A program made the position numbers and the translations under genes. From Candidatus Omnitrophota bacterium (lineage in GTDB: Bacteria > Omnitrophota > Gorgyraeia > Zapsychrales > Fredricksoniimonadaceae), in contig CAIOPG010000004.1 in assembly GCA_903860135.1 (NCBI GenBank), positions 272,648-336,647 of the forward strand: a stretch of DNA of 64,000 nt, in the 5' to 3' direction. The notes under the pieces were generated by a model. It did not search any database, was not told the DNA's origin, and saw only the letters and a list, made by a program, of their open reading frames with translations. Below are positions 952-22,205 of this stretch, piece by piece; within the stretch, counting starts at the first letter, position 1, and each line of letters starts with the position of its first letter.

Positions 952-1163
952 CTTAGCCTCGGTTGCCATTCATGCACAATGCCTAAAAGCAATTCAACGA
1001 CTTAGGAAGTATAGCACAGAAAATTCGTCAAGCAAATTTTTAGATTTATTTTTACTTTTTTAAATGCTTTGTTATCAACACGTTACAGCTTTGTTTGAAT
1101 TTTTTATCTATTTATTTTATAATTTAAAATTTTTCTTTTGTATTGCCACCGTCGGATGGGAAG

Positions 1164-1239: not shown

Positions 1240-2154
1240 CTAGCCACCGGTTAAATTCTTTAAAGGATTGTTATACATGAAATCCAAAAAGATAGGCGCG
1301 CCGACCAGGATGCCAACAACCGGAAAAATACAAAACAAAAGGGGCAGTAACATCTTTAAAGGCGCCTTGAGTGCCATGGCCTCACCCCGGCGATAGCGTG
1401 CAATGCGCATATCTTCAGAAAGGATATTGAGCGCCTCACTGACCGAAGTACCCATCTTGTCGGCCTGGATCAAGGTGCGCGAAAAAGTTGAAAGATCCGG
1501 GATCTCATACCTTTTTGCCAGATCACGCAGGGCGTCCCGGCGCGGTTTGCCGACATTTATTTCCTGAAGGACGTTATTCATTTCACTGATAAGGTGGGAC
1601 TGATTTGACTTCTCGACCACCCACTTGAGTGCCATCATAAAGTCAAGCCCTGCGTTAACACAAAGGCCGAGAAGATCGACCGTATCCGGCAATTGTTTGA
1701 TCACACTTTCTTTAACAGCTGCGATCTTACTGCGCAACCAGAATTCCGGAAGATAATAAGCTGCCGCCACGGAAAATACGATCCCCATGGGAAGCATTTC
1801 TTTTCCAATGAACGTAAGGGTTACGAAAACAAAGAACGCGCATACCAGTTCCTTGATCAAGAGAAATTCTTCGGGAGAAATGCCCGTAAAAGATACCGCA
1901 ATGCCCCGCATCATCTGCCGGCGCATTTCCTGGCTGATCAGGGGTTTGTTGAGGATCGCCAACCAACGGAAAATTGAGAAAATCGTTACCTGGCGTGAAG
2001 CCTTCTTCTGGGCTTGTGCCGACGATATAACCCCGAAATCATGAACTTTCAAGGTCGGCCTAGGTGTCAGGATATGCATACTAAAGCCAAATACCACCAG
2101 CATCCCCACCGCCACAAACAAAAAGAGAGCCGTCACCAGCATTAAAGCCTCCAT
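1240..2154 (-). CDS. tadC: Flp pilus assembly inner-membrane platform protein TadC-like (T2SS F family)
   Basis: 304 aa, multi-TM, T2SSF-type cytoplasmic domain (…ALRDLAKRYEIPDLSTFSRTLIQADKMGTSVSEALNILSEDMR…); adjacent second T2SSF paralog. Confidence 0.65.
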   Translation of the reverse strand: MEALMLVTALFLFVAVGMLVVFGFSMHILTPRPTLKVHDFGVISSAQAQKKASRQVTIFSIFRWLAILNKPLISQEMRRQMMRGIAVSFTGISPEEFLLIKELVCAFFVFVTLTFIGKEMLPMGIVFSVAAAYYLPEFWLRSKIAAVKESVIKQLPDTVDLLGLCVNAGLDFMMALKWVVEKSNQSHLISEMNNVLQEINVGKPRRDALRDLAKRYEIPDLSTFSRTLIQADKMGTSVSEALNILSEDMRIARYRRGEAMALKAPLKMLLPLLFCIFPVVGILVGAPIFLDFMYNNPLKNLTGG

Positions 2155-2163
2155 AATCCTGGG

Positions 2164-3021
2164 TTAATCATTAAATGAGCTGATCTTGATGATCAGGAAT
2201 GTGCCTACCAGCCAAAGTCCGAGCGCCGTCATGGTCAACATGCGCCCGAGATCCGTGGTCATCATGACATTAAAATATTTAGGGTTTGTCGAGTTAACGA
2301 GAAAAAAGAACCCCACAGGAAGCCCGCTCATAACAAGGGCCTGCAGTTTCCCTTGAACCGTCAATACCATCAGATTTTCTTCGATCTTGCGGCGCTCGCG
2401 GATCGTTCCCACAATGCGCGAAAAGATCAACGGTAAATTACCGCCCGTTTCACGCGAAAGCAGGATGGCGCTGATCATTTGCTGTAACGGCGGTGACAGC
2501 ATGCGCTTGTACAAGCGATTTAACGCCTCGTCGAGCGACACGCCCATCTTGTTTTCACCGAGCACAATGCCAAACTCATGATGGATCGGATTGGGCATTT
2601 CCTCAAAGACAGCCTCCATCGACTGGACCAGGCTCATGCCGCCGCGCAAGGAGCTAGACATGATCATCAAGGCATCGATGAGCTGTCCATCAAATTGACC
2701 CTTGCGTTGCTTCATCAAATGAGAGGCGTAAAACTTTGGCAGGGCCAATCCCAATAATCCACCCCCAAAAATGCCTGCCATACGAAAATTAGGATCTGGC
2801 ATGAGAAAAAACCCAATCGCCGCACCGGCAAAAGGCGCGATCACGAAAGCTTTCTGAACATTCTGTATATCCTCCGCGATCATCGAACGATCCATGCGCC
2901 GCGCAAAGTCTTTAGCGCGTTTTTTATTCATCTCATGAGCCCAGCGCACCGCCGCTGGAATTACAAAATATACGGTTAAAAGAACAGCTACAAAAACAAG
3001 AATAAAACTAACAGCCAGCAT
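2164..3021 (-). CDS. tadB: Flp pilus assembly platform protein TadB-like (T2SS F family)
   Basis: T2SSF-like (…GMSLVQSMEAVFEEMPNPIHHEFGIVLGENKMGVSLDEALNRLYKRM…). Start moved by inference to internal Met (MLAVSFILVF) to avoid overlap with the upstream pilin-like gene; track ORF is 2164..3093. Confidence 0.6.
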   Translation of the reverse strand: MLAVSFILVFVAVLLTVYFVIPAAVRWAHEMNKKRAKDFARRMDRSMIAEDIQNVQKAFVIAPFAGAAIGFFLMPDPNFRMAGIFGGGLLGLALPKFYASHLMKQRKGQFDGQLIDALMIMSSSLRGGMSLVQSMEAVFEEMPNPIHHEFGIVLGENKMGVSLDEALNRLYKRMLSPPLQQMISAILLSRETGGNLPLIFSRIVGTIRERRKIEENLMVLTVQGKLQALVMSGLPVGFFFLVNSTNPKYFNVMMTTDLGRMLTMTALGLWLVGTFLIIKISSFND

Positions 3022-3038
3022 AAACGTCTCTCTAGTTA

Positions 3039-3380
3039 TTAAGGTTGACCACTGCATGCTGCCTGACATGCCGTCCTTACATTGTCCGCACATGTATTAA
3101 ACTGGGTCGAACGCTTGCAGCCTGCCTTTAACAACTCATTATCAAAGCAAGCCTGGGAATACCATAGATGTAACATATCATCATACGCACAATCGATCGT
3201 CGCGCGCGGGCTATACTGCCGCAGGAACCCGATGGTTTCTCCAACCTTGCGGTATTGCCCCTGCAAGGCACGCTGAAGATAACCGCGAAAATAAACCATT
3301 ACCGTCAACACAATGACCATAAGGACAACATATTCCAACAAGCCGAAGGCTTTCTTAACACCTGATTGATCATGCCGCAT
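3039..3380 (-). CDS. Flp/TadE-like prepilin-type protein (113 aa, Cys-rich C-terminal part)
   Basis: N-terminus KKAFGLLEYVVLMVIVLTV matches Flp prepilin processing motif (A/G-XXXX-EY) followed by hydrophobic helix. Confidence 0.45.
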   Translation of the reverse strand: MRHDQSGVKKAFGLLEYVVLMVIVLTVMVYFRGYLQRALQGQYRKVGETIGFLRQYSPRATIDCAYDDMLHLWYSQACFDNELLKAGCKRSTQFNTCADNVRTACQAACSGQP

Positions 3381-3421
3381 GAGCGTCTCCGGTCATTATA
3401 AATCCCCGCCCGATACCATGG

Positions 3422-6211
3422 TTAAGAGCAACATTGAGAACATTTACGGAAAGCCATCTTGTATTTATTGTTTTCAATATAATATCGCGCACATGTTTCT
3501 GTCGCAACGCCCAGCCTCAACAAAGAATTGATATTATCCACGCACGTCACCCGCGTCGGAGCCTTTTGCGGATTCAACATGAACGCTTCGTTAAGGTGTT
3601 CCCCGGCCGGGATCGTGCCCGTTGGCTTGGTCTGCGGCAGGACACAGTTTGTCCACACCTGCGCGGCGGTGGCCGCGGTCTTGGGATTCCCGTGCGGATT
3701 ATGATAAAGGATCCGCCACAAAGAAAGGCCGCTCAGGAATTTTAGAAAACCATTCTCATTAAGATCATGATCTTCGTCATAACGCACCACCCGCAAACCA
3801 ACGCAACCCGAGGTATCTGTCAGCTCATAACACCGCGTAGAACCCAAGAAGCCCGTGGTATATGTTCTGATCCAAGGGAATCTATCCGTGCATGTGTTGA
3901 AACCAGCGGCACCGGTACTGCGGTTGGGTATGGCGGCTTCCACCTTGACAAGGTGCAAATAGCCATACCCGCGCGAGCCACTCCAGTCATCAGGCCGCGG
4001 AGAGAACCAGCCGTAAACAACCTGGTTGCCAAGACCACCGGCCTTTACCGCCGCATCCACAGCCAACACCAACTGCCTAAGCGTACCGGGAGCTGTGTTT
4101 AAATAAGCCAAGGCATTCTGCATAATAACCTTAGCGGCCTGGGCCTTTGTATTCATATCCTGCAAATACCGTTTGCGTGCGGCTATTTTTGCCACCTGAT
4201 TCATCGACAAATACGCACTTTCTTGTATATTTGCCAAATAACTGCTCGAGGCTGGCGAACATACCGCACCGGCACACACCGGCCTTCCGGGATCGGTGTT
4301 GGCATTGAACCCCGTCACCAAAGAACGCGGCATATTATTACAGGCGGTTGTAGGACACGACGGTGTCGCAACGGTGCAACCCGCACAAAGAACCTCGCAG
4401 GCATTAAAGGCGGTTGTTGCCCCCTCGTTGTATTCCAGGCATTTGATCACGCCGCCCAAGGACCCCCATGGCCCTCCTGTCAATATAGCATTGGCCTCTA
4501 TCGGCATAAGCCCCACTTGACTTGCCGGCACACACCAGCTTTGACTGTTGGCATACGGCCCCGCCTGCCAGGTATTGATCAACTGTATCCAACGTGCCAG
4601 ACGTGCCTGCCATAACACCATGGTATCGGCTGTCTGCAACACCGTTTCTTTCCAGGCACCTACCGAACTTAATATTGCTTTTTGCTTTGCGGCATCGGTC
4701 GTCAGCAAGCCTTCAAACGTAGCTTTAAAATAATCCGCCTCGATCGCAAAGGCGTCAAAAGCATCGTTCCTCCACAAATTTTTATGATCAGCGGCTGAAC
4801 AATTACAACCGTTCACAAGTGCCGCCGCCGTTTGGCCGGCTTCCTGACAAGCGGCCACGGCTGTGCCCGAGCTACCCGATTCCATCTTCACCGGATAAAT
4901 TTTTCCGGCTGTATCGGCGAACGTAGCCGAACCAAAATCTGCCCCTTTTTTCCAAACAAAATTTGTTGTCGCGTCAACGGCAGGGTCAACAGGACAGGCT
5001 GTGTCGGCAAGTGGCCGAAAAGCTGTTATATCCGCAACCGTATCGATGACACGCGTATCCAGGCTTGACGGTAAACTGCTTCGGTTACCAAAAACATGCG
5101 CACAACAACCGTTGCCCGTACACGGCTTGGGCAAAACCAGCTGATCATAGGCAACGGTCCCCGATGGACGATAAAGCAAGGGAGACGCCGTTTCCGGCGC
5201 ACACGTTCCAACAGCCGTTGCCGAACACCAATGACAACCGGGGCTGGTTGTTGCCAGACTGCTGTAAGAAAGGCTGGCCAATGCTGGCTGTGTATCCGCC
5301 AGAAGCCATAAAAACTTGAACATATCCCCCTTGCTGTCTCCGCCACGATAAATGCCCAGAGTATCTACCGCTTCGGAACCATAACTGGTGATATACCGCC
5401 GCGTATCCCCGTCATCAGCCTCGAGCACACCCATCAAGTTATTCCCTGGCGTCACTATGCCCAATCTGTCTTCAAAATCTTGCAAAAAGGCACGCAAGGC
5501 CTGAACCGATGCCACCGACACAGGCGCGATGCTTTTCATCCGTTCATTATAAAAATAAGCAAATCTGGGCACTTCTTCTCCGGGAATGCCTTTGTTAGTT
5601 AAAGCATCCGGATTATACCAACGTCCATCCATATCAAGATCCCAGCGATCATTCACCATCACGCCATCGCTCTGAACCGTACTCAAAGCCCCTTTAAGCC
5701 CGGCTTCAAGGTATTGATCTTCAACGGCCGGCATCGCCATCGCCGATTTATTCCAGGCCTTGGTCAGCCCAGGATCGCTGATACCCACCTGCAGTCCGAT
5801 CCCCACAGCCGTTAACACCGCCGCTGTTGCCGCGGCGGCAAAAACATTTCCGGCCAGCAAGGCACTAAAAAACGAACTGCCATTCAAAGAGGCTATCCCG
5901 CAACCCGGAACAAACACCATGATAGCAACAAGAAGAATTAGCGTAAGCAGGGAAGCAAAAAGCCCGGTGTATTGACACAGCTTAACGTTACCATCGAGCT
6001 GTGTCCCCATGATTTGACTTTGTCCATAGCTGGCCATCAACGACACCAGTGTCGATGCCCCGGTATTGGAAGAAATCGTGACCGCCGTCTTTATGGCTGT
6101 CATCCTGGACCAGTTCAGAGAAGCGGCATAAAGGATGAGGGCTACCGCTATCAGAACCATGATGATGAGGGACATTTGCCCTTTACGGCCTACTGGCATA
6201 ACCATCCTCAT
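3422..6211 (-). CDS. Large (929 aa) membrane-anchored, Cys-rich predicted extracellular protein of the Tad locus (TadG-like N-terminus; candidate pilus-associated adhesin)
   Basis: N-terminus RKGQMSLIIMVLIAVALILYA is pseudopilin-like; a second hydrophobic stretch; >40 Cys in the extracellular part; no recognisable enzyme motifs. Located between pilin array and tadB. Confidence 0.4.
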   Translation of the reverse strand: MRMVMPVGRKGQMSLIIMVLIAVALILYAASLNWSRMTAIKTAVTISSNTGASTLVSLMASYGQSQIMGTQLDGNVKLCQYTGLFASLLTLILLVAIMVFVPGCGIASLNGSSFFSALLAGNVFAAAATAAVLTAVGIGLQVGISDPGLTKAWNKSAMAMPAVEDQYLEAGLKGALSTVQSDGVMVNDRWDLDMDGRWYNPDALTNKGIPGEEVPRFAYFYNERMKSIAPVSVASVQALRAFLQDFEDRLGIVTPGNNLMGVLEADDGDTRRYITSYGSEAVDTLGIYRGGDSKGDMFKFLWLLADTQPALASLSYSSLATTSPGCHWCSATAVGTCAPETASPLLYRPSGTVAYDQLVLPKPCTGNGCCAHVFGNRSSLPSSLDTRVIDTVADITAFRPLADTACPVDPAVDATTNFVWKKGADFGSATFADTAGKIYPVKMESGSSGTAVAACQEAGQTAAALVNGCNCSAADHKNLWRNDAFDAFAIEADYFKATFEGLLTTDAAKQKAILSSVGAWKETVLQTADTMVLWQARLARWIQLINTWQAGPYANSQSWCVPASQVGLMPIEANAILTGGPWGSLGGVIKCLEYNEGATTAFNACEVLCAGCTVATPSCPTTACNNMPRSLVTGFNANTDPGRPVCAGAVCSPASSSYLANIQESAYLSMNQVAKIAARKRYLQDMNTKAQAAKVIMQNALAYLNTAPGTLRQLVLAVDAAVKAGGLGNQVVYGWFSPRPDDWSGSRGYGYLHLVKVEAAIPNRSTGAAGFNTCTDRFPWIRTYTTGFLGSTRCYELTDTSGCVGLRVVRYDEDHDLNENGFLKFLSGLSLWRILYHNPHGNPKTAATAAQVWTNCVLPQTKPTGTIPAGEHLNEAFMLNPQKAPTRVTCVDNINSLLRLGVATETCARYYIENNKYKMAFRKCSQCCS

Positions 6212-6227
6212 TTCATATTATGCGCGA

Positions 6228-6458
6228 CTATTTCATGGGCCGGACTTGATGAAAATCCGGGTTCAACTGTTGTTCCGTTGAGAGCGATGCGTTCCTTAAA
6301 ACCGCTTCATGATCAAACCGGCGCTCGGCCATATCCATCATGCCCCAGCGAAAAACACCGATCATGCCGTTAATGAGCAAACAGACGACGATCATTCCCG
6401 CCGTATATTCCAGGATAGCCTGCCCATCTTTCTGCTTGTTATGACTCTTTGACATCAT
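6228..6458 (-). CDS. Flp-family prepilin-like protein (76 aa)
   Basis: KDGQAILEYTAGMIVVCLLING = G-QAIL-EY motif plus hydrophobic helix. Confidence 0.5.
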   Translation of the reverse strand: MMSKSHNKQKDGQAILEYTAGMIVVCLLINGMIGVFRWGMMDMAERRFDHEAVLRNASLSTEQQLNPDFHQVRPMK

Positions 6459-7912
6459 GGGGCTGACGTACTTTCATTCCAGGGTTCGTCCATGGCTGTT
6501 ACCCATTTCCGGCCGCGCTTGTCACTGATACGGCTTCGGATAAAAAGTCTCTTCATGGCCGTATCAAAACAGGTGCGCTGGATCATGGCCGTATCCATGC
6601 AACAACTGACACCCGTGGCGGCAGCCCCGCAGGAAGCCTCGACCGACACCGGATTCCTGCTCACAAACCCAGCCGGATCCATCATGTTCCAGTTCAATTG
6701 GTACTCACGTTCTATGACATCATTCTGATTTTTTCTAATTGTACTAACATTCAATGGTTGGCCACCCAATGAAAAATTTTTACCTTCTCGCACATCAAAA
6801 TAGGTTACTTCTCCCGCGGCGCATGTCGCTGTCGCCGTGGGAACACATTGTGTCTGCGAATAGATCCGCATATCGGGCCGCATCCCGGGCTTACGTTCAT
6901 CGGTCCCCGCAAAATCCGCCGCCGACTTGTTTGCGTCCAGATCACCTGCCGTTGTATCAATGACCGCAACCGTATACGCCACATAACCAGCACAGGCCGT
7001 GCCAGCCCACGTCAATGCATAAACGGTCTCTTCGGTGCGATCCCCGTTGACATCATAAGAGGGATACGCCCCATTGTCCGTATCGATTGAATCGGCAACC
7101 TCTTTCAGTGTTTTCCATGTCCATTGCCACGTCGGATCTCCAGCCGTCGTCATATCATCTGTATAAATACCATTGCGATCCAAATCAAACCGTCGCACAT
7201 CGTAAGCATTAAAATCCGTGTTGTTAGCCGTGATGGCCGTATAAAAAGGGGGCGTGGTACCTGTTGCTGTCGCTGTGCCGTAATGTGTCCATTCATAAAT
7301 CAACCGTTGCCGGGCAAGCTTGTTATTGTCTGAATTGATATTGACCACACCAGCACCCCCTGAACACATGCTGTCTCCGCTACCATCAGAAGGCAACAGC
7401 AAGATCGTCAGCTGATCTGCATTCGCCGCCGCCATGGTTGCGGGTGGCGCGGCCAACGCCGACTGTTGAAGTAGCATTTTGTATTTTACGAAAGCCCCCG
7501 TCGACATGTGAAATTCCTGACCATTGATCTTCATATCTACCATGGGAAGATTTTGATCTTCCTTCCAATCTACCGGTAACATAGCATTTTTATTCAGCAT
7601 CCCGGCCCCGGTCACCATGACCGGCTGACGATCAAGAAATCCGTATCTCCCAAAATCACCGGTCAGACGATCTTCAAAAAACACATACGATGCCTGCACC
7701 CGCGACGCCGTGTTACTTTCAGAAGAAAGATACGAACGGCTCAGGGCAATGCGCATGGCCTGCAATTGGGCATTCTGTTGAAAAGAACCGGAAAGAAAAT
7801 TCGTGGCAATACCTGTTATAATAAAAAAAAGCACAGCTCCGAAAATGGCCAATTCAATGATGGATTGCGCCAATGTCGAAGACAGTGCTTTCTTCCTTTG
7901 ATTCTTCATCAT
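6455..7912 (-). CDS. TadG/TadE-like pseudopilin-type large protein (485 aa)
   Basis: N-terminus ALSSTLAQSIIELAIFGAVLFFIITG: A-QSII-E(L) prepilin-like with Glu at +5, single N-terminal TM, large extracellular domain. Confidence 0.5.
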   Translation of the reverse strand: MMKNQRKKALSSTLAQSIIELAIFGAVLFFIITGIATNFLSGSFQQNAQLQAMRIALSRSYLSSESNTASRVQASYVFFEDRLTGDFGRYGFLDRQPVMVTGAGMLNKNAMLPVDWKEDQNLPMVDMKINGQEFHMSTGAFVKYKMLLQQSALAAPPATMAAANADQLTILLLPSDGSGDSMCSGGAGVVNINSDNNKLARQRLIYEWTHYGTATATGTTPPFYTAITANNTDFNAYDVRRFDLDRNGIYTDDMTTAGDPTWQWTWKTLKEVADSIDTDNGAYPSYDVNGDRTEETVYALTWAGTACAGYVAYTVAVIDTTAGDLDANKSAADFAGTDERKPGMRPDMRIYSQTQCVPTATATCAAGEVTYFDVREGKNFSLGGQPLNVSTIRKNQNDVIEREYQLNWNMMDPAGFVSRNPVSVEASCGAAATGVSCCMDTAMIQRTCFDTAMKRLFIRSRISDKRGRKWVTAMDEPWNESTSAP

Positions 7913-8236
7913 TTATGGTCCCGTAGGCGACATTGTTGAAGAAACTGTCTTGGCTTCCGTGCTCGTTGAATCATCCACCCTGTACGTGATCGAACCATTG
8001 ACTCCGGATGCTGTCGCCGGAATAACATAAAGGCGTGACTGAGAGGTTGTGCTTAAGGCATAATGTGTTTGTCCGGTCAGCGCATTGGCATCATACTGAT
8101 CGCCCAGATCATCCACCGACTGTTTCATGCGCCCTTGAAACCCGCGCTTGATGTAGGCCTGCATGGTCAAGAAAGCGGCGATGATAATCATGAGCAATAG
8201 CGAGTATTCCAGAAAACTTTGGGCTTTTCTCATCAT
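7913..8236 (-). CDS. Flp-family pilin-like protein (107 aa, Ser/Thr-rich C-terminus)
   Basis: MMRKAQSFLEYSLLLMIIIAAF: A-QSFL-EY motif + hydrophobic helix. Confidence 0.55.
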   Translation of the reverse strand: MMRKAQSFLEYSLLLMIIIAAFLTMQAYIKRGFQGRMKQSVDDLGDQYDANALTGQTHYALSTTSQSRLYVIPATASGVNGSITYRVDDSTSTEAKTVSSTMSPTGP

Positions 8237-8237
8237 A

Positions 8238-8570
8238 TCAATCCAGGATAAATCCCATATTAGTCAAAGAATTTGTCATTGTCGTTACTTGCTCTTGCAC
8301 ATTGCGCACACTCCATCCGCCCGCATCATTGCGCACATTGTCAATCTGACTGCTTGTGACTGTATTTGATCCCTGCAAATAGGCATCACCCGTATTCATG
8401 TCCTGTTCCGCTCCTTTTTGATCACCGATCTGATCAGCCGCAGATTTCATCATGCTTTGCGTGGTGCGTTTGAGGCGGGGAAACATCGTCATAACGGCAG
8501 CCACAAGAATGGTGATCAGCAGAACATATTCCATCAATGACTGTGCCCGGCGTGACAACAACATATACAT
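8238..8570 (-). CDS. Flp-family pilin-like protein (110 aa)
   Basis: RRAQSLMEYVLLITILVAAV: A-QSLM-EY motif. Confidence 0.55.
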   Translation of the reverse strand: MYMLLSRRAQSLMEYVLLITILVAAVMTMFPRLKRTTQSMMKSAADQIGDQKGAEQDMNTGDAYLQGSNTVTSSQIDNVRNDAGGWSVRNVQEQVTTMTNSLTNMGFILD

Positions 8571-8586
8571 TACCTGTTGTATTAAA

Positions 8587-8925
8587 TTATTGTGGCGCTG
8601 CCTGACTGCTATTGGATACGATCAAACGCTGTGTGCTTGTGTCTTTTTGATACCCCGTAGCCACAGCTTTTTCAGTTGCCTTTGTGTCTGTGTCCGTCGT
8701 CGTTGTTGACGTGGTGTAATAAGGTTCATATTCAACCTGGACTGGTTTATAAAGAGCAAGCGCGGCCTTGGCAACCACGAGCGCATTAATATCAAAACTC
8801 CGGGCTTGCAAGGTGCGGCGAACATAGATTGACATGCCAATGAGCGCGCCAACAACCAAAAAAATCAAAATGACATACTCGGCACTGATACCCTGGGCTT
8901 TTGTACAACGTAACTTCCTTGACAT
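8587..8925 (-). CDS. Flp-family pilin-like protein (~112 aa, Thr-rich; YEPYY motif shared with 9322..9693 paralog)
   Basis: Start placed at internal ATG (8925) preceded by GAGGG RBS: MSRKLRCTKAQGISAEYVILIFLVVGAL. Track ORF 8587..8988 extends upstream through the terminator hairpin. Confidence 0.5.
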   Translation of the reverse strand: MSRKLRCTKAQGISAEYVILIFLVVGALIGMSIYVRRTLQARSFDINALVVAKAALALYKPVQVEYEPYYTTSTTTTDTDTKATEKAVATGYQKDTSTQRLIVSNSSQAAPQ

Positions 8926-8942
8926 ACACCGCCCTCTGATGG

Positions 8943-8979
8943 GTAAAAAGCAGAAAGGGCTCCCCTGAGCCCTTTCTGC
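8943..8979 (-). terminator. Intra-array palindromic hairpin with flanking T-tract (GCAGAAAGGGCTC-4nt-GAGCCCTTTCTGC), placed right after the stop of the 8989..9303 pilin gene
   Basis: 13-bp perfect stem read from sequence; T-tract on both sides (bidirectional terminator-like). Likely attenuates read-through into downstream pilin paralogs. Confidence 0.45.
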
Positions 8980-8988
8980 TTTTGCCAA

Positions 8989-9303
8989 TCAATTACCCCA
9001 ATATTCACCATCCGTATTCGTTCCAATAGCACGAACGGTATTCTGGATCGTGTCATGTACCAACCCAGTCGTTGCAACACCGGAAGTGGAATTTTCCTGT
9101 GTTCGCGAATTGGTTGTCACAACCTTATAATAATTTGCAGCTGATGCTATAGAATATTGATCGCCTATATCATCTGTTGCGCTTTTCAAACGACCTGAAA
9201 TACCACGTTTGATATACGTTTGCAATGTTAAAAGTGCCGCAATGATGATAACCATCAAAATAGCATACTCGAGCACGCTTTGACCACGCTTTGTTTGCAA
9301 CAT
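8989..9303 (-). CDS. Flp-family pilin-like protein (104 aa)
   Basis: MLQTKRGQSVLEYAILMVIIIAALLTLQ: canonical G-XXXX-EY Flp motif. Confidence 0.6.
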   Translation of the reverse strand: MLQTKRGQSVLEYAILMVIIIAALLTLQTYIKRGISGRLKSATDDIGDQYSIASAANYYKVVTTNSRTQENSTSGVATTGLVHDTIQNTVRAIGTNTDGEYWGN

Positions 9304-9321
9304 AATGCTTTGTCCTTTCTC

Positions 9322-9693
9322 TTAGAAACCGGCAGCTGTTTCAGCAGCAGCCAGACCTCCGCCAACGGCGTTTTTGTTATAGATTGACGTGTCAACGTAA
9401 CCAGCCGCAACTGTTGTGGCTACGCTTGTATCTGTTGCAATATTGGTGTTTTCAAACTTTGTTTTCTGTGAATCCTTTGTCTCACTCTTATTGGTATAAT
9501 ACGGTTCATACTGTAATGTTGTCCCGAGAGCATTTGTCTCATCACGGAACTTGACATTAACGTCGCGGATACGGCCTTGCAGGGTGCGCTGGGCATACAT
9601 TTGCATGGCAATAACACCGCCGATAACAAGTGCTATCAGGATGGCATATTCTGCTGTGTTTTGTGCTTTTTTATTTCTGAATCTTTTTAACAT
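9322..9693 (-). CDS. Flp-family pilin-like protein (~123 aa)
   Basis: Start at ATG 9693 with GGAGG RBS 6 nt upstream: MLKRFRNKKAQNTAEYAILIALVIGGV (A-QNTA-EY). Track start 9708 is a TTG. Confidence 0.55.
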   Translation of the reverse strand: MLKRFRNKKAQNTAEYAILIALVIGGVIAMQMYAQRTLQGRIRDVNVKFRDETNALGTTLQYEPYYTNKSETKDSQKTKFENTNIATDTSVATTVAAGYVDTSIYNKNAVGGGLAAAETAAGF

Positions 9694-9704
9694 TGTAACC
9701 TCCT

Positions 9705-9893
9705 TCAATGTGAAGCATTTAATTTGTCAGCCATTAATCCAATTCCATTGATCGCATCGCTAAACGACCGGTTGACGGTCGTACGGAATGGCGACCCAGG
9801 TGTTACAACAAGCCCGATGATGATAACAATAACAGCTGTGACCAAAAGCACATATTCCAGCGTGCTTTGACCCTTTCGGTAACATCTTGACAT
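9705..9893 (-). CDS. flp: Flp pilin (62 aa)
   Basis: MSRCYRKGQSTLEYVLLVTAVIVIIIGLVV: canonical G-QSTL-EY; size typical of Flp; AGGAGG RBS upstream. Confidence 0.7.
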   Translation of the reverse strand: MSRCYRKGQSTLEYVLLVTAVIVIIIGLVVTPGSPFRTTVNRSFSDAINGIGLMADKLNASH

Positions 9894-9918
9894 GGCATTC
9901 CCTCCTGTTTAATTAAGC

Positions 9919-10065
9919 TTATTCTCTTTGGAATTCCGCTGTTATGCATTTTTGCTTCGACTGGACAGCACGGTACACATAGGTACTCATCGCAACAGCC
10001 GCTGTTGTGACAATGGCGACGACAAGGGCATATTCAACAACATTCTGGCCTTTGTAACGACACAT
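9919..10065 (-). CDS. flp: Flp pilin (48 aa), not present in the supplied ORF track (<60 aa)
   Basis: Manual translation: MCRYKGQNVVEYALVVAIVTTAAVAMSTYVYRAVQSKQKCITAEFQRE*; G-QNVV-EY motif; GAGG RBS upstream; first gene of the pilin array. Confidence 0.65.
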   Translation of the reverse strand: MCRYKGQNVVEYALVVAIVTTAAVAMSTYVYRAVQSKQKCITAEFQRE

Positions 10066-10282
10066 TGATAACCTCATCGCCGTTCCCCGTGTGCGTTAAG
10101 ACATAACACCCGAGACCCCCTGAATCTTTTGGGAGCGGGAATCCACCCGGGCACTCTATGTTGACGCTGGTTACCCTCGTCAACCCGATCCGGCCCCTAC
10201 AGAACCGATTTCGATGATGCTCCGTCAAAGAACGGAGCTGTAAGACATCCTACACAAGAAAAACAAACACATTCATAAATTG

Positions 10283-10310
10283 AAGTATAACATACATATA
10301 ATAAGTGTCA
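10283..10310 (-). promoter_or_regulatory. Candidate sigma70-type promoter for the flp array (TTGACA-16-TATACT on minus strand), implying a ~210-nt leader
   Basis: Hexamers read from sequence (TGTCAA 10305-10310, AGTATA 10283-10288 on plus strand). Weak evidence, AT-rich context. Confidence 0.2.
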
Positions 10311-10366
10311 ACGTGCAGAAGCCCGTCATAGACAAGCCTTTGCGGCCCATTGAAAAGATAGGCGAA

Positions 10367-12154: not shown

Positions 12155-12190
12155 ATTTTTTGTCCATTCTGGACATTGCTGCGGCGTTGG

Positions 12191-12538
12191 CTAAAAAGCT
12201 TTAATTTCAATTACATCACCTACGCTGGTCTCTGTTTGCTTAATGGTGCCGATAGGAAGTTCAATGGCACATGTCGCTTTCCAGAAAACAGAACTCATCT
12301 GGTTTGGTTTAATTTCTTCGACCAAACCAACAACAACGCCACGCCTATCAATAAAAACAACATCGATGGCCACTGACATAAAAAACATATGAATAGAATT
12401 GCATGATGTGATCACAAGCCCTTGACCTGGTTCAAGTGACTGCCGTCCTATTAAGCCTTTTGCTCTTGAAAATGGAGTTTTAGCTACTTCAGCGTGTTGG
12501 CTCAAACACTTATTATTCTTAAGATTTTTAATGATCAC
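12191..12538 (-). CDS. DUF192 (COG1430) family protein
   Basis: 115 aa; pattern …AKTPFSRAKGLIGRQSLEPGQGLVITSCNSIHMFFMSVAIDVVFIDRRGVV… typical of DUF192. Confidence 0.5.
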   Translation of the reverse strand: MIIKNLKNNKCLSQHAEVAKTPFSRAKGLIGRQSLEPGQGLVITSCNSIHMFFMSVAIDVVFIDRRGVVVGLVEEIKPNQMSSVFWKATCAIELPIGTIKQTETSVGDVIEIKAF

Positions 12539-14714
12539 TGGCAGGTGCGGCTTTATTTAACGCAAACATCCCCACGTTAAGCTCAACGCCGCGCTTGAGA
12601 AAGTCATCATAACACTTTGGAATATACCCTGTCGGTCTATAGTCACCCAAAACTCGTCCAGACGAATCAATCCCGCCTTGTTCAAAAACAAAAACATCCC
12701 GTAATTCGGGTAAACCATCAACAATGACCTTGGTTACCTCCGTAATCCCGGTGATCTTACGCGAACCATCAGAAAACCTGGAAACTTGAATAACAAAATC
12801 AATGGAAGAAGCGATCATTTCATAAACAGCACGCAAAGGCAGTTCAATGCCACTTAAAATGATCATGGCATTCAAGCGCGTGATGGCATCTCGTGTCGAA
12901 TTGGCGTGTAAAGTTGTCATGGATCCATCATGACCGGTATTCATGGCCTGAAGCATATCCAAAACTTCTGCCCCGCGACACTCACCCACAATGATCCGAT
13001 CCGGCCGCATACGCAACGTATTAATAAAAAGATCCCTGATCATGATCGCACCCTTGCCCTCAACATTCGGTGGGCGCGATTCAAGTCTGGCCCAGTGGGC
13101 TTTGTTGATCTTCAATTCCGCCGCATCCTCAATGGAAATGATACGTTCACCATCTGGAATGCACTCAGAAATAATATTGAGTAATGTTGTTTTACCCGAA
13201 CCGGTTCCACCTGAGACGACCATATTCTTGCGCGCGATGACAGCGGCTTGAATAAACGCCGCCATATCAGGCGTTAAACTTTTAAAACGATTCAAAAGAT
13301 CATTCATAACATACCGATCCTGACCAAACTTACGGATCGTGATCATGGGACCGCGCAAGGATAATGGCGGAATGATCGCATTAATACGTGAACCGTCAGG
13401 AAGGCGTGCGTCAACCATGGGTGTTGACTCATCAATACGTCGCCCAAGCGGAGCAATGATGCGGTCAATGACCGATCGCACCTGCTGATTGGATACAAAT
13501 CGCCTGTTCGTTAGTATGATCTTGCCGCCTTTTTCAACATAGATCTCATCTTTATTATTCACCATGATATCGGTGATCTCTGGGTCGGCAAGAAGCTCTT
13601 CAATCGCCCCAAACCCCAGTGCTTCATTAACAATATCAACAACAAGCTTGGTCCTTTCTTGATGCGAAGAAATAAGGACGCCTGTTTCTTCAGCCAACAA
13701 ATTGACAATGATCCGTTCTGCCTGTTTCTTTATTTGTGCAGCCTGTTCTACATCAGCCAAGGCCTCTGGTGTCACTGCCTGGAGATTCATGCGGTCGATG
13801 AGCTTCTCATGTATGCGTTTCTTTAACGCAATTATCGCTTCTTCTTCTTTACTTACAATGCGCTTGCTTGAGGGCCCCGTCGCAATGGTGTCATTAGCGC
13901 CTGTGGACATCCATAAATTATCAGTTTTTGCGTCTTCTGTTGAACGACCACGAACAACTTCTGTTGTATTAACATACAATTCTTCATGATCGATGTCTTT
14001 AATCAACTGCATGAACGCAAAAGATACTTTGGCCTTGGGATTGTCCACAACAACAGGGACTCCCTTGTTCAAAGCCATCCCAACAACCTTACCATCCGAA
14101 GGTATCTTTGTGATAATATCACACGAAAGCGCATCTTTAACTTCTTGCCATGCAACACCACCGTGACTTTCCGCACGATTGAGCACAAGCTTGATCATTT
14201 TGAGCGGGAAATGCTGACTTTGTAGAATTTCAAGACCCCATTTGATCTGATAAACAGCAAGAATATCCGGTGTCGCCACCAAAAGGATCAAATTTGTCAT
14301 GTCAAGAATAGACACCAATGTTTCCGTAAAAGCCTTCCCGACATCAATAATGATATAATCATAATGCGGGGCAACTCTTTTAAGGAACAACTTCACATTA
14401 TCTGGTGTGATATGGCCTGTTTGATGAATGGTGATAACAGCTGAAATAAAATCCAGACCTGAAGAATGCGTTACCATCAAGTTCTTGATACTTTCAAAAT
14501 CCATTGATTCCTGAATTTCAGGTAAAATATCAACAATGGACTTCTTCGGTGCCACATTCAACATGCGCGCCATATCTTGACCGGATTGAAAATCGAGGTC
14601 AATAACAAGCGTTTTTTTGCGTGATAGTGCCAGCGTAACAGCCGTGTTGACACAAACAAACGTTTTGCCGACGCCACCTTTATTGCTAAAAACCGTTATT
14701 GTTCTTGCTGCCAT
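12528..14714 (-). CDS. Fused TadZ/CpaE-like (MinD/ParA-type ATPase) – TadA/CpaF (secretion ATPase) protein, 728 aa
   Basis: N-terminal TVFSNKGGVGKTFV deviant Walker A of the MinD/CpaE family. C-terminal region has VSGGTGSGKTTLLN Walker A, IIVGECRGAEVLDMLQAMNTGHDGSMTTLHANS His-box and the CpaF signature, in one continuous frame. Confidence 0.75.
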   Translation of the reverse strand: MAARTITVFSNKGGVGKTFVCVNTAVTLALSRKKTLVIDLDFQSGQDMARMLNVAPKKSIVDILPEIQESMDFESIKNLMVTHSSGLDFISAVITIHQTGHITPDNVKLFLKRVAPHYDYIIIDVGKAFTETLVSILDMTNLILLVATPDILAVYQIKWGLEILQSQHFPLKMIKLVLNRAESHGGVAWQEVKDALSCDIITKIPSDGKVVGMALNKGVPVVVDNPKAKVSFAFMQLIKDIDHEELYVNTTEVVRGRSTEDAKTDNLWMSTGANDTIATGPSSKRIVSKEEEAIIALKKRIHEKLIDRMNLQAVTPEALADVEQAAQIKKQAERIIVNLLAEETGVLISSHQERTKLVVDIVNEALGFGAIEELLADPEITDIMVNNKDEIYVEKGGKIILTNRRFVSNQQVRSVIDRIIAPLGRRIDESTPMVDARLPDGSRINAIIPPLSLRGPMITIRKFGQDRYVMNDLLNRFKSLTPDMAAFIQAAVIARKNMVVSGGTGSGKTTLLNIISECIPDGERIISIEDAAELKINKAHWARLESRPPNVEGKGAIMIRDLFINTLRMRPDRIIVGECRGAEVLDMLQAMNTGHDGSMTTLHANSTRDAITRLNAMIILSGIELPLRAVYEMIASSIDFVIQVSRFSDGSRKITGITEVTKVIVDGLPELRDVFVFEQGGIDSSGRVLGDYRPTGYIPKCYDDFLKRGVELNVGMFALNKAAPASDH

Positions 14715-14724
14715 AGTAGATTCT

Positions 14725-16578
14725 TTATTTATGCGCGGAAATATTATTTAAAAATGAATCCAGGCTATATAAAATAGAAACTGTAATTTCCAATGTTTCA
14801 GCCTGAATAGTCTGTGGAAAAGCATCATACGGTGCCAATATTTGTGCCGTATTAACCGCATCTTGATCAAAGACGGGGTGTCCTGAAGATTTTTTTACAA
14901 CAACATCTTTAAGTGTGCCGTCTTTTGTTATGACCAGAGCTAGCTGAACGATGCCTTTCCAATTCTTTTCCTGCGCTTCATACGGATACGCAATGGCCGT
15001 TGATATTTTTTCCTGGATCAATTTGGCATATTTATCTTCCTCTGAAACAATGGGAGAGGATGATTTTACCGGTTCGACTTTGGATGCTATTTTGTTATTA
15101 ACAGGTGTCGTTGGTGCCGGTGCCGTTTTATTCACCATTGATTTTACAGGATTGGAACCCCCGACAACGTCGGTTAAAGCCGGAGCCCTATTGACTTCAG
15201 CCTTCAACTGCCGGGCAAAGTCATCCGCTTTATCTTCTGCGGCAAACGCTGAGCCGCTCTTTTGCGGCACATCAAGGCTTGCTGGTGTTTTCTTATCTTT
15301 GCCGTTAGTATCCAACAGCTTATCCGTGTCTTCGATCAGCTTTTTATCATTAGGTAGAATGGTTGCCGTAATGGAAATAACAACCTCGGTTTCTTCATTG
15401 GGTGCTGGCGTTTTTGAACTGCGGAAAAATATTCCCACAACCGGGATCTTGCTAAGGAAAGGAACACGACGAACCACTTCCGTATTCCGGCGCTTGATCA
15501 TGCCCGCAAGAACAATGGTCTGATGGTCTTGCAATAAAAGTTGTGTTTTTGCAGATCGCGTTAAAAAGGCAACGTCCGTCCCTGTAGGCTTTGAACCATC
15601 GATTTCGCTGATCTCGGCATTGAGCAAAATATTTACAAGATTGCCAGCCTGAATCGATGGTGTAACCGCCATAGTAACACCGTAAGGTTTAAATGTCTTG
15701 TTTTGCTGTGTCGATCCGCCACTGGCACTCGTCGTCGTTGTATTGATCGGGATTTCTCCGCCAACCAAAAAGGTCGCTTCTTTTCCACTGATAACCACAA
15801 GTCGCGGCTTCGAAAGGATCTTGCCTTTCCCTTCTTCGATCAACGCATTGACGGCACCGACCAGCGCATTGGTACGGCTAAGGCTTCCGATCCTCCATAT
15901 GTCGCTCAATGAACCCTGATTCGTTGGGATTGTTTCCTGATATGTGGGATTCAACGGATTAGTTGCGCCATCCATACCCCAATCGATCCCCATCTCTTTG
16001 GTAAGCGTTGTGGACAACTCGGTGATCTGCATATCGATCTGAACAAGGTCTTCAATCTTTTCTTTCTGAACAAGATTAATGATGCGGTCCATGAAAGGAT
16101 CAATGACCTTGATCAACACCTCCATCTTTTCTTCCGACAGCGCACCTGTAAGAACGACCTTGCCTTCATCTTTATTTTCACTTAATACCACATTCTTAAT
16201 GCCAACGCCCGCCAGTAAAGATTGAAGCCTTTTCCTGACAAGGCCGGGATCTTCCTGAACAACACGAATGATAACCGTCCGTTTCCCGCTATCATCCCAA
16301 ATAAACAAAACCGTCTGCCCCGGATCAATGGCTATAATATCCACAGAATCAATGCGCGCATCGTTAATATCAGCAACAACAGGATCTGTGATCGAAACTC
16401 TTTTTAAATTTTTCGCGGGAATGCTTTGAATGTCACCCTTAACAATTTGAAGCTCTTCATTTCCTTTTTCTGCGGCCGCAAAAGAAAGCGTCGGCATGCC
16501 ACTTGACAACATAACAACCGCCAAAGCAATTGATAACGCGGTTCTCATCACCCTGGAAAAATCAACCGTGTTCATCAA
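14725..16578 (-). CDS. Secretin (CpaC/RcpA-like) with C-terminal TonB_C-like domain
   Basis: Signal peptide; secretin C-domain (…VPFLSKIPVVGIFFRSS…EVVISITATILP). A Pro/Lys-rich linker follows. The C-terminus YPYEAQEKNWKGIVQLALVITKDGTLKDVVVKKSSGHPVFDQDAVNTAQILAPYDAFP matches the TonB C-terminal domain pattern. Confidence 0.75.
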   Translation of the reverse strand: MMNTVDFSRVMRTALSIALAVVMLSSGMPTLSFAAAEKGNEELQIVKGDIQSIPAKNLKRVSITDPVVADINDARIDSVDIIAIDPGQTVLFIWDDSGKRTVIIRVVQEDPGLVRKRLQSLLAGVGIKNVVLSENKDEGKVVLTGALSEEKMEVLIKVIDPFMDRIINLVQKEKIEDLVQIDMQITELSTTLTKEMGIDWGMDGATNPLNPTYQETIPTNQGSLSDIWRIGSLSRTNALVGAVNALIEEGKGKILSKPRLVVISGKEATFLVGGEIPINTTTTSASGGSTQQNKTFKPYGVTMAVTPSIQAGNLVNILLNAEISEIDGSKPTGTDVAFLTRSAKTQLLLQDHQTIVLAGMIKRRNTEVVRRVPFLSKIPVVGIFFRSSKTPAPNEETEVVISITATILPNDKKLIEDTDKLLDTNGKDKKTPASLDVPQKSGSAFAAEDKADDFARQLKAEVNRAPALTDVVGGSNPVKSMVNKTAPAPTTPVNNKIASKVEPVKSSSPIVSEEDKYAKLIQEKISTAIAYPYEAQEKNWKGIVQLALVITKDGTLKDVVVKKSSGHPVFDQDAVNTAQILAPYDAFPQTIQAETLEITVSILYSLDSFLNNISAHK

Positions 16579-17414
16579 TTAGTCCCCCTTCCACTTTTGA
16601 AGATCTGAATGGCAGGCCCTTGCGAAAGTCCCAATGAGGCAGCGCCTGACGATGCGGTATCCGATACATTAAGGTCCGCCCCGGTATTTTGTAACACATA
16701 CTCGGCCAGTGTTGACCATGTCGCGGCAGAGATCATGGTGGACTTTTTTTCATTCGGTGAACGAAGGGCTAATTCAAGTTTGCCATTCTTTTCCGCAAAG
16801 GACAACAGGCTGGCCTCTTCGGGCGATACAGCAAAGGTGATCTTCAGCGAACGATCGTTTTGCTGTTGATCATAACCGCCAGGTTGATCAATATTGGTAT
16901 TAATGGCCAGTATCTGAAGATTCTGAAAGATCATGGCTGTTACAGCCTCTCTCTTTTCCTTATCTTTCTTTCTTCCCATCGAAGACTCCATATCGGGAAG
17001 ATTCAGTTGCGCGATAATATCCACATAATCACCAGGATTAAGCAAGCCACCCACAGCACCGAGAGAATCTATCATCAGTGTCAGCGCACGTTTCCCGGCC
17101 GGCATACGCAAGGCCAATGAAACAGCCTTGCGTTCCTTCCCTGGAACTTCCGCCACAGCGACGGCTCCTGCATTCTGCGCAGATTTCTGCATATTCTGCT
17201 CGACTTGAGCAATCTTTTGATTGAGTGCCCCGAGTTCCTGTTTATAAGCATCATCACGTTGCTTTTGATCTTTTTGATATTTCTGCGCAATCTTGGTTGT
17301 CTGCTCATTGATCGATTGCGTCACATAAACACTGACCAAATAAGCGGCAAGAAGACCTATGCCCACAGCAAGGAGAAGCACCAACAACTGATTCTTATTT
17401 TCCATCAATGCCAT
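16575..17414 (-). CDS. Flp pilus assembly protein CpaB/RcpC-like
   Basis: N-terminal TM, coiled-coil, SAF-like segment RALTLMIDSLGAVGGLLNPGDYVDIIAQLN; located directly upstream of secretin. Confidence 0.5.
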   Translation of the reverse strand: MALMENKNQLLVLLLAVGIGLLAAYLVSVYVTQSINEQTTKIAQKYQKDQKQRDDAYKQELGALNQKIAQVEQNMQKSAQNAGAVAVAEVPGKERKAVSLALRMPAGKRALTLMIDSLGAVGGLLNPGDYVDIIAQLNLPDMESSMGRKKDKEKREAVTAMIFQNLQILAINTNIDQPGGYDQQQNDRSLKITFAVSPEEASLLSFAEKNGKLELALRSPNEKKSTMISAATWSTLAEYVLQNTGADLNVSDTASSGAASLGLSQGPAIQIFKSGRGTN

Positions 17415-17430: not shown

Positions 17431-18372
17431 TTACTCTTTTAAAAGGCTCTCGTTAACCTGAACCTTGATTGCTTTCTGAATATCTTTTACTCTCGCCTGG
17501 AGCAATTCCTGCTGTTTGCGCAGTTTTAGGAAACTCATAAGATCCGCCTTAATCTCGGCCAGTGCAACAGTATCACCACCCTGAACGGTTTCAACCTTAA
17601 CAATATAAAAACCATCGGGCCCCTCAAACACAGAAGAAACATCACCTGCATTTAAGTTGGCAACAGCCGCTGCCATAGCGGGCACCGCTACCTCGGCATT
17701 CAACGCAACCACGCCACCATCTGCCGCTGTTTTGCCCTTTGACTTATCTTTGGCAAGCTGGGCAAAATCCGACCCTTGAAGGATTTGAACAAGAATGGCA
17801 TTGGCGTCAGCTTTTGTTGCCACCACGATTTCGCGCAAGTGCTTTTCTTTCGGTTTTTTAAATTCGTTGGGATTTTCATTGTAATATTTTGTTACTTCTT
17901 CATCACCAATAACAACATCCTTGGTAATTTGCGTGACCGATTCCTGCACTAAAAGTGTATTTTCAAACTCTTTCATGGCCGTCTTAACTGTGCTGCTACT
18001 ATCAAGCTGATCCTTGCGTGCCTGCTGAATCAAAAGCTGTTGACGCACAAGCTCATTAAGGAGCATGGCCTTGGCACCTGGTTCTTTTTCATTAAAATCT
18101 TTAACTGATTCTTTAACCACCTTGATGCGCTGATTAAATTCATCGCTCGTAATCGTCCAGTCACCCACTTTTGCCAATACATCGGCAGGCAACGCCACTG
18201 TTTCGACCGGTTGATTGGTGCTCTCGGCAACAGGTGTAATGGACACCGCCACCGGTGTTGCTGGCGCTTTGACGACCTTGCGCGGCTCAACCTTATTGCA
18301 CCCCATGATGGCCAAAACAAAAAAACTAGAAACAAAAACTAAAAATTTATTTACCCTCATTCTACCCTCCAT
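17431..18372 (-). CDS. Parvulin-type peptidyl-prolyl cis-trans isomerase lipoprotein (PrsA/SurA-like)
   Basis: Lipobox (VLAIMGC); SurA_N-like region; PpiC-type PPIase motif (…FAQLAKDKSK…DGGVVALN…GFYIVKV). Confidence 0.7.
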   Translation of the reverse strand: MEGRMRVNKFLVFVSSFFVLAIMGCNKVEPRKVVKAPATPVAVSITPVAESTNQPVETVALPADVLAKVGDWTITSDEFNQRIKVVKESVKDFNEKEPGAKAMLLNELVRQQLLIQQARKDQLDSSSTVKTAMKEFENTLLVQESVTQITKDVVIGDEEVTKYYNENPNEFKKPKEKHLREIVVATKADANAILVQILQGSDFAQLAKDKSKGKTAADGGVVALNAEVAVPAMAAAVANLNAGDVSSVFEGPDGFYIVKVETVQGGDTVALAEIKADLMSFLKLRKQQELLQARVKDIQKAIKVQVNESLLKE

Positions 18373-19570: not shown

Positions 19571-19644
19571 TGACCCCAGCGGGATTTGAACCCGCGTTCC
19601 AAGCTTGAAAAGCTTGTGTCCTGACCAGGCTAGACGATGGGGTC
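19571..19644 (-). tRNA. tRNA-Glu (anticodon UUC)
   Basis: Manual cloverleaf: GACCCCA acceptor, anticodon stem CAAGC/GCTTG with loop TTTTCAA, T-arm GCGGG-TTCAAAT-CCCGC; closely resembles E. coli tRNA-Glu; CCA not encoded. Confidence 0.85.
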
Positions 19645-19664
19645 AAGGCTCAAAAGTGTTCCCT

Positions 19665-19692: not shown

Positions 19693-19715
19693 GGGAAATA
19701 TAACATGCTGTCTTA

Positions 19716-22181: not shown

Positions 22182-22205
22182 CTATGAAACCTTTGTTAAA
22201 CAAGA

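Follow-up and report, generated by a model that had tools for sequence, protein, structure and literature searches.

Omnitrophota genomes are already known to place a filament or secretion locus beside genes for giant proteins. West-Roberts 2023 (bioRxiv 10.1101/2023.11.21.568195, Fig. 7A), in its available passages, describes a secretion locus of more than ten subunits that precedes the giant genes, counts a peptidyl-prolyl isomerase (PPIase) and many small genes with class III signal peptides among its members, and reads it as similar to a type II secretion system (T2SS); the giant proteins begin with C39 peptidase domains and have many transmembrane (TM) segments. The available part of a 2026 preprint repeats the association between locus and giant gene. 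According to the available text of Seymour 2023 (PMC10066038), V. archaeovorus expresses its Tad complex when grown together with Methanosaeta, 74 of 116 Velamenicoccia species have TadBC/RcpA, and the Tad cluster of 'Candidatus Velamenicoccus archaeovorus' LiM (Kizina 2022, as relayed there) covers about 17 kb at 12-30 kb of the chromosome, a position that probably puts it near the replication origin. Here we analyze a Tad locus on the minus strand of a 64-kb stretch (the window, meaning the whole stretch studied) of an Omnitrophota metagenome-assembled genome (MAG). It matches the locus of West-Roberts 2023, as far as the available passages describe it, in having a Rotamase_2 PPIase gene, rcpC, counterparts of gspD, gspE and gspF, many class III genes and a C39 giant gene downstream. 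Compared by description in the available text rather than gene by gene, it resembles that of V. archaeovorus in being an Omnitrophota Tad cluster, lying 9-25 kb from dnaA. Because these three works describe the locus type, neither the system nor its row of small class III genes is new, and the window is a further instance with no difference in kind. We think it probable that the locus encodes a Tad-type fiber machine with one or two Flp-sized major subunits, many minor subunits and two Cys-rich tip or anchor proteins, which contacts host or prey and is coupled to the giant protein.

Canonical Tad/Cpa loci, ordered flp-tadV-rcpCAB-tadZABCDEFG in Aggregatibacter and pilA-cpaA-F in Caulobacter, contain about one to three Flp genes together with TadE, TadF and TadG. 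The window locus shares with them CpaF/TadA, TadB, TadC, RcpA/CpaC, RcpC/CpaB, TadZ/CpaE and prepilins with a G/xxxxEY-type site. Unlike them, it has a reversed order with the pilins between the ATPase and platform genes, fusions of TadZ to TadA and of the secretin to TonB_C, 11 prepilin-like genes with an invariant Gln at +1 and frequent Ala at -1, and additional genes for a DUF192 protein, a helix-turn-helix (HTH) protein and the PPIase. TadV was not found within the locus and its flanks, and the locus proteins scanned against Pfam carried no domain of TadD (a tetratricopeptide-repeat lipoprotein), of RcpB or of a recognizable TadG with Tad/von Willebrand A regions. Another Tad-like machine, the Kil system of M. 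xanthus, is needed together with its pilins for contact-dependent killing, and a T2SS-like role for it was left open (Seef 2021, PMC8460266). Kil is similar in being a Tad-derived machine with accessory proteins of unassigned function, and it acts at the predator-prey contact site; unlike the window locus, it is divided between two clusters, comprises a single Flp with two pseudopilins, encodes a prepilin peptidase of its own (KilA) and includes FHA-domain (forkhead-associated) proteins.

To place the locus among its relatives, we searched a species-representative genome collection with the TadZ::TadA protein. The best 80 of 190 confirmed relatives are 51-86% identical and nearly all labelled Candidatus Omnitrophota/Omnitrophica; the few labelled 'Planctomycetales' or 'Elulimicrobium' are MAG names. 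The identical protein also occurs on ENA and Logan metagenome contigs. We then blasted the window proteins against all open reading frames (ORFs) of 82 fetched loci. An original prediction had proposed a Tad/Flp locus of non-canonical gene order here; the minus strand from 1240 to 17414 is indeed densely filled with ORFs, all of those it named were recovered in place, and Pfam assigns RcpC, Secretin, AAA_31/ParA with T2SSE, DUF192 and two T2SSF domains as it had proposed (Table 1).

The T2SSE domain of the ATPase (E=5.4e-59) matched Caulobacter CpaF in the PDB (9e24, E=1.2e-116, 394 bits), a score far exceeding those of archaeal FlaI (1.6e-36), VirB11, GspE and PilT (GspE or PilT about 1e-7; GspE about 33 bits). 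The N-terminal domain of the same polypeptide resembles ParA/MinD-type proteins (ParA 3ea0, 1.3e-16), with Pfam AAA_31, ParA and CbiA at residues 4-250, and both domains stand in one ORF in 82 of 82 loci. The secretin has T2SS-T3SS_pil_N as its N-terminal domain, matches PDB secretins including RcpA (8odn), and is fused to TonB_C in all 77 orthologous secretin ORFs. TadB and TadC are adjacent and have one T2SSF domain each, making two half-size platform proteins; the longest TadB ORF (2164-3093) has 309 aa. Because RcpC, an RcpA-like secretin and two half-size T2SSF proteins accompany a CpaF-type ATPase, the machine is a bacterial Tad (type IVc) system, neither a T2SS nor an archaeal system. 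TadZ/CpaE and a prepilin processing site, which are also features of Tad systems, are present as well. The TonB_C region of the secretin falls at 14725-15000 of the minus strand (residues 515-617), and the 'TonB C-terminal domain' genes that flank giant genes in the available part of the 2026 preprint may be this same secretin.

The main rival to a fiber machine is T2SS-like export, in which a short periplasmic pseudopilus would push cargo through the secretin and no long adhesive pilus would form; the cargo might be fragments of the giant protein, perhaps freed by its C39 domain, or hydrolases. Such export would suit a locus that constantly adjoins a giant gene, holds many minor-pilin-like subunits with only two of Flp size and includes a periplasmic PPIase chaperone, and it is how West-Roberts 2023 reads the locus in its available passages, with the parallel that Seef 2021 (PMC8460266) leaves such a role open for Kil. 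It has to contend, however, with an ATPase of CpaF rather than GspE type, with two half-size platform proteins in place of one GspF, and with the lack of GspC, GspL and GspM domains among the locus proteins scanned against Pfam. The N-termini of the pilins, moreover, are of Flp/archaeal type (Gln at +1, then EY) and not G/FTLxE with Phe or Met at +1, and the giant proteins, with their many TM segments, would not be an obvious folded periplasmic cargo. We therefore consider T2SS-like export unlikely, and the fiber machine remains the preferred reading.

The gene order, originally called atypical, does differ from the canonical one and recurs among the relatives. About 50 loci keep, position by position, the order RcpC, secretin, TadZ::TadA, DUF192, P595, p52, p62, p123, p104, p112, p110, p107, P485, p76, P929, p113, TadB, TadC, so that the arrangement, which has been published, is standard in the phylum Omnitrophota and not peculiar to this genome. 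The only sizeable gap within the cluster is the 289 bp between P595 and p52 (10078-10366). The genes of the proposed unit, 1240-17414, stand, whereas its boundaries need extending: in 56 of 61 related loci a same-strand PPIase gene directly precedes rcpC and so belongs to the unit, as it does in the available passages of West-Roberts 2023, and the giant gene (969-1) follows at the other end. In one subclade (L009, L010, L012, L013, L015), the locus breaks off after DUF192 and gives way to ilvD and to unrelated genes; these genomes must carry the half with pilin and platform genes elsewhere or have lost it.

To locate prepilin-like genes, we scanned all six frames of the window for K/R upstream of [GA][QF]x3-4E[YFL] followed by a stretch of 18 residues of which at least 15 are hydrophobic or small. 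Ten ORFs were hit, every one of them within 3042-10095 of the minus strand and none elsewhere in the 64 kb, against a mean of 0.17 in 30 triplet shuffles of the window; the array is far beyond chance. The nine-gene Flp-motif array proposed originally is thus borne out, and the tenth ORF is the 485-aa protein, which shares the N-terminus of the nine small ORFs (52, 62, 123, 104, 112, 110, 107, 76 and 113 aa). The proposed size range of 48-123 aa holds too, the 48-aa gene being p52 (52 aa) read from an internal Met. The N-terminal layout is a short basic leader, [G/A]-Q(F)-x3-E-Y and about 20 hydrophobic residues. Six of 11 proteins have Ala at -1 of the predicted cleavage site, in agreement with the original prediction. 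The five long pilins have C-termini rich in Ser/Thr, as it had also stated (fraction 0.18-0.34 after residue 45); the glycosylation it read into them is speculation. In an AlphaFold (AF2) model of p104 built with 117 sequences, residues 10-50 form a helix of high confidence, and confidence is low over the Ser/Thr-rich remainder.

The processing site is conserved well beyond the window. Gln at +1 is invariant in the orthologs of p52 (36/36), p62 (65/65), p110 (30/30), p107 (43/43), P485 (32/32) and p76 (22/22). Glu at +5, near-constant in most orthogroups, anchors the register, and +6 is Tyr (65/65 in p62) except for Phe in p76 and Leu in P485. Position -1 varies between Gly and Ala within orthogroups (G:A of 21:15 in p52, 34:44 in p123, 72:27 in p104, 15:15 in p110 and 12:20 in P485), with p62 nearly fixed for Gly (62 of 65). 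Loss of the G/A-xxxx-EY motif in orthologs, or failure of pilin hidden Markov models (HMMs) on them, would have spoken against an array of pilins; the motif is kept in orthologs from about 50 other genomes.

Could the small ORFs instead encode ordinary membrane proteins that cross the membrane once and bear only a superficial likeness to class III signals at their N-termini? Most lack a Pfam hit above threshold, no peptidase lies nearby, and a few relatives bear the JGI label 'cytoskeletal protein RodZ'. That label comes from the profile of the p104/p107 family, whose 1487 clusters are otherwise unannotated ('hypothetical') apart from a few called 'UPF0333 family', the archaeal class III family, and we regard the RodZ label as spurious. 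The exact prepilin register of basic leader, [G/A], Gln at +1, Glu at +5, Tyr at +6 and about 20 hydrophobic residues is kept over hundreds of sequences in the ortholog and family comparisons, the array is enclosed by the ATPase gene and the platform genes of a Tad machine, and pilin HMMs match many orthologs. That the ORFs are not pilins is therefore unlikely to the point of being scarcely credible.

The HMM matches also place the family. Among the window pilins, p62 alone passes a Pfam gathering score, through the archaeal model Class_IIIsignal, and Flp_Fap reaches only p52 at E=0.023, below its gathering score. In 135 orthologs at E<=0.1, we found Class_IIIsignal 42 times, Flp_Fap 31 times (best 2.2e-7), DUF4244 ten times, Flp1_like and TadE seven times each and archaeal Pilin_N once. 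Pilin HMMs thus hit the family; of Flp_Fap and TadE, the window itself shows the subthreshold p52 match alone. An NCBIfam scan of the ten pilin-like proteins gave nothing meaningful, and a PDB sequence search with p52 and p104 gave no match. Archaeal class III (Epd/UPF0333-type, PF04021) pilins share Gln at +1, Glu at +5 and the short basic leader, and p62 passes the gathering score of PF04021, the model of their Q-x-S-x-E-x-x-x-L N-terminus. The likeness spans only about 25 residues, and Tyr at +6 is a Flp hallmark; unlike archaeal Epd pili, the genes are served by a bacterial CpaF-type ATPase, a secretin and RcpC, without the archaeal mode of assembly. Judged by these profiles, the family sits between archaeal class III models and Flp/TadE models. 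The rule of Gln at +1, Glu at +5 and Tyr at +6 behind Gly or Ala at -1, with other comparative details, explains why standard pilin HMMs mostly miss these genes.

Each orthogroup also has a signature beyond the shared helix: YEPYY in p123 and p112, which the original prediction had noticed in two proteins, DDIGDQY in p104 and p107, and FrW in p76. The subunits are therefore anciently specialized and not recent variants, and the paralogs are ancient orthogroups. One could alternatively see in the array interchangeable major-pilin variants for antigenic or phase variation or host-range switching, like flp/pilin cassettes of pathogens, given that nine paralogs share one N-terminal module, that their C-terminal halves diverge fast and that some relatives (including L008, L017, L019, L029 and L080) carry two or three tandem copies of the p62-p123-p104 triplet. 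Each array position, however, has its own ortholog in the same order even where the ATPases are only 51-60% identical, the signature of each orthogroup is the pattern of specialized minor subunits, and no invertible elements or silent cassettes were seen. A cassette of variants is accordingly very unlikely, and specialized subunits are the better account of the array. In many relatives, p112 is preceded by a second p62-like gene, which the window lineage lacks; from this extra gene, the array would have arisen by ancient duplication of a p62/p123/p104-like module, and the comparison suggests that it grew by module duplication. Further loci listed for array expansion are L016, L025, L026, L028, L030, L032, L033 and L050.

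We infer that p52 is the candidate major subunit because its gene comes first after a promoter and its product, of Flp size, is better conserved than the others (ortholog consensus kgQnliEYAiVvalv.Aa..AMsTYVfRsVQ). The promoter is the best-scoring sigma-70-like site between 1000 and 18500, with 11 of 12 matches and an extended -10 element, and an alignment of 13 diverse loci shows its TTGACA ... TGnTATACTT to be conserved. The leader of about 200 nt that follows had no Rfam match, a folding z-score of -1.2 and no RNAalifold consensus structure in a gappy alignment. There is thus no evidence for a riboswitch from Rfam, folding energy or consensus structure. Several loci have GC-rich hairpins just upstream of the ribosome-binding site in this leader.

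An enzyme for prepilin processing was sought in the same loci. No ORF of the window has the GxGDxK motif of A24 peptidases, the class of TadV/CpaA, and neither has any ORF of the 82 loci, searched with flanks of up to 10 kb on both sides; nor is there a recurrent family of small multi-TM proteins in these flanks. Because no A24 peptidase was found, processing of the pilins is assumed rather than shown. The C39 domain of the giant protein is an unlikely substitute, as -2/-1 are K/R followed by G/A and not a double-glycine site.

Two large Cys-rich proteins accompany the small pilins. The first, P485, had been called TadG-like, for which only its prepilin N-terminus speaks; it has no Pfam hit even at E<=10. 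Its orthologs retain the prepilin N-terminus and parts of both EF-hand-like loops. The second, P929, is Cys-rich as predicted and supplies the eleventh class III-type N-terminus, with the G-Q pair present and Glu absent. It has a conserved DxDxDG loop (D188, D191, D193, G196), and D182, D188 and D191 are invariant in its family, which also conserves the G-Q N-terminus and many Cys. An exhaustive HMMER search found 382 representative clusters of 600-1700 aa, compared with five from a word-based search, and all members with a named source are Omnitrophota hypothetical proteins. At E<=10, the only Pfam match of P929 is DUF2070 (E=5.9), which is not meaningful, and one family member carries an inserted CBM60 carbohydrate-binding module, with no other known domain in the family. 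By analogy with PilY1-type proteins, and because of the EF-hand-like loops and the CBM60 insertion, we propose that P485 and P929 may have an extracellular Ca2+-dependent adhesin or tip role. Together with P595, they are lineage-specific families without Pfam match, P595 and P929 having been seen only in Omnitrophota.

In the fiber machine that we favor, cleavage would occur between [G/A] and the invariant Gln, and p52, perhaps with p62, would polymerize into the fiber, with the seven other small prepilins as minor subunits that prime or cap it. P485 and P929 would sit at the fiber tip or base as Ca2+-dependent adhesins. The fiber would contact host or prey cells and act with, or help to deploy, the giant surface protein encoded downstream, and a processing peptidase encoded elsewhere in the genome would accept both Gly and Ala at -1. 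Several points weigh against this proposal: the window and the 82 loci with flanks yielded no A24 prepilin peptidase, the one gathering-score match among window pilins is to an archaeal model and not to Flp_Fap, P485, P929, P595 and DUF192 have no assigned function, and we can only surmise which subunit is major, whether the product is a long pilus or a short pseudopilus, and how it is linked to the giant protein. A bolder version, which we hold to be improbable, would make the Tad machine and the giant gene one unit, in which an 11-subunit (pseudo)pilus deploys or is capped by the giant protein and matures without an A24 peptidase of the locus. It would explain the lack of a peptidase in 82 loci, the free choice of Gly or Ala at -1 and the archaeal-like invariant Gln at +1; if true, the locus would be a Tad-based effector-deployment system and not just an adhesive pilus.

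Table 1. Features of the Tad locus and its flanks in the 64-kb window (a slash marks the predicted prepilin cleavage site)
Feature	Coordinates	Strand	Description	Evidence
PPIase	17431..18372	-	Lipoprotein, first gene of unit; SurA_N + Rotamase_2; lipobox AIMGC	Pfam
RcpC/CpaB	16575..17414	-		Pfam RcpC E=2.3e-24; weak match to PDB 9gzr RcpC
Secretin	14725..16578	-	RcpA/CpaC-type, C-terminal TonB_C (residues 529-606)	Pfam Secretin 4.8e-39, T2SS-T3SS_pil_N, TonB_C 8.4e-16
TadZ::TadA	12528..14714	-	728 aa; TadZ (ParA/AAA_31, residues 4-250) fused to CpaF/TadA ATPase (residues ~283-711)	Pfam AAA_31/ParA + T2SSE
DUF192 protein	12191..12538	-	No signal peptide; overlaps ATPase stop by 11 nt	Pfam DUF192 4.6e-20
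P595	10367..12154	-	595-aa cytoplasmic protein	Conserved N-terminal three-helix HTH, disordered linker, alpha/beta core
Promoter	10284..10311	-	Sigma-70-type, TTGACA-N16-TG-TATACT	~200 nt upstream of p52
p52	9919..10077	-	Flp-sized prepilin (YKG/QNVVEY), most conserved of set, first gene after promoter	Flp_Fap E=0.023
p62	9705..9893	-	Flp-sized prepilin (RKG/QSTLEY)	Class_IIIsignal 23.9 bits, gathering score 23.7
p123	9322..9693	-	Long prepilin (KKA/QNTAEY), YEPYY motif	Motif + ortholog conservation
p104	8989..9303	-	Long prepilin (KRG/QSVLEY), Y.KRG.QGR.K...DDIGDQY	Motif + ortholog conservation
p112	8587..8925	-	Long prepilin (TKA/QGISAEY, one extra residue before E), YEPYY	Motif + ortholog conservation
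p110	8238..8570	-	Long prepilin (RRA/QSLMEY)	Motif + ortholog conservation
p107	7913..8236	-	Long prepilin (RKA/QSFLEY), Ser/Thr fraction 0.34 after residue 45	Motif + ortholog conservation
P485	6455..7912	-	Large prepilin-like protein (TLA/QSIIEL), 8 Cys, EF-hand-like loops DLDRNG + DVNGD	Motif
p76	6228..6458	-	Short prepilin (KDG/QAILEY; EF in orthologs)	Motif + ortholog conservation
P929	3422..6211	-	Cys-rich (30 Cys) membrane-anchored protein, RKG/QMSLII, no Glu+5	3 predicted N-terminal hydrophobic segments
p113	3039..3380	-	Prepilin (KKA/FGLLEY), 6 Cys	Flp1_like E=0.13 + ortholog conservation
TadB	2164..3021	-	T2SSF; 285-aa start per public gene calls	Pfam T2SSF 2.5e-14
TadC	1240..2154	-	T2SSF, 304 aa	Pfam T2SSF 2.2e-14
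Giant ORF	969..1	-	15,764 aa, N-terminal 323 aa in window	TM segment, then Peptidase_C39

Among the remaining genes of the unit, DUF192 is present in 77 of 82 loci, and a connection of DUF192 with type IV filament systems was not found in the literature. P595 has a strongly conserved N-terminal HTH and an alpha/beta core of unassigned fold; relaxing the Pfam threshold to E<=10 brings up nothing meaningful. The giant ORF lies on the same strand as tadC and begins 270 bp beyond it; its frame is open and, by the gene call on the source contig (L083, 11186 onward), runs beyond the window. Pfam finds Peptidase_C39 at residues 248-326 of its product (E=8.1e-7). Plus-strand ORFs at 38-1243 overlap the giant ORF and are probably spurious.

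On the other side of the locus lie mdh, a tRNA gene (19571-19644), gyrA, gyrB, dnaN and dnaA (26209-27597), followed by a YidC-like ORF (28240-29847) assigned by eye only. GC skew switches sign at about 26-28 kb, and at 26-30 kb the GC content is lowered to 0.36-0.38; the region from about 19571 to 29900 is the neighborhood of the replication origin. GyrA lies within 10 kb upstream of the locus in 28 of 50 relatives. Farther away, a 6S/SsrS RNA (41228-41381, plus strand; Rfam RF00013, 57.7 bits) overlaps the start of a 483-aa ORF (41289-42740), whose start is therefore probably miscalled. The plus strand also encodes a 599-aa protein (51680-53479) for which Pfam gives nothing at E<=0.001 and at least seven hydrophobic segments are predicted, and a radical SAM enzyme with a SPASM domain (56953-58356). 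SPASM-type radical SAM enzymes often act in peptide maturation.

Several features were not encountered in the available passages of West-Roberts 2023 and Seymour 2023: the CpaF assignment in combination with the universal fusion to TadZ, the TonB_C domain on the secretin, the number of 11 prepilin-like proteins and their fixed orthology, the rule of Gln at +1, Glu at +5 and Tyr at +6 with Gly or Ala at -1, the missing peptidase, the conserved promoter, and the P595, P485 and P929 families. The window is categorically nothing new; comparative details such as the fusions, the 11 prepilin-like orthogroups, the promoter and the lack of a peptidase in the locus may help to dissect the system. Omnitrophota are abundant, uncultivated and ultra-small, and are thought to be predators or parasites. 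This locus and its adjacent giant gene are the main genomic candidates for their host attachment and attack.

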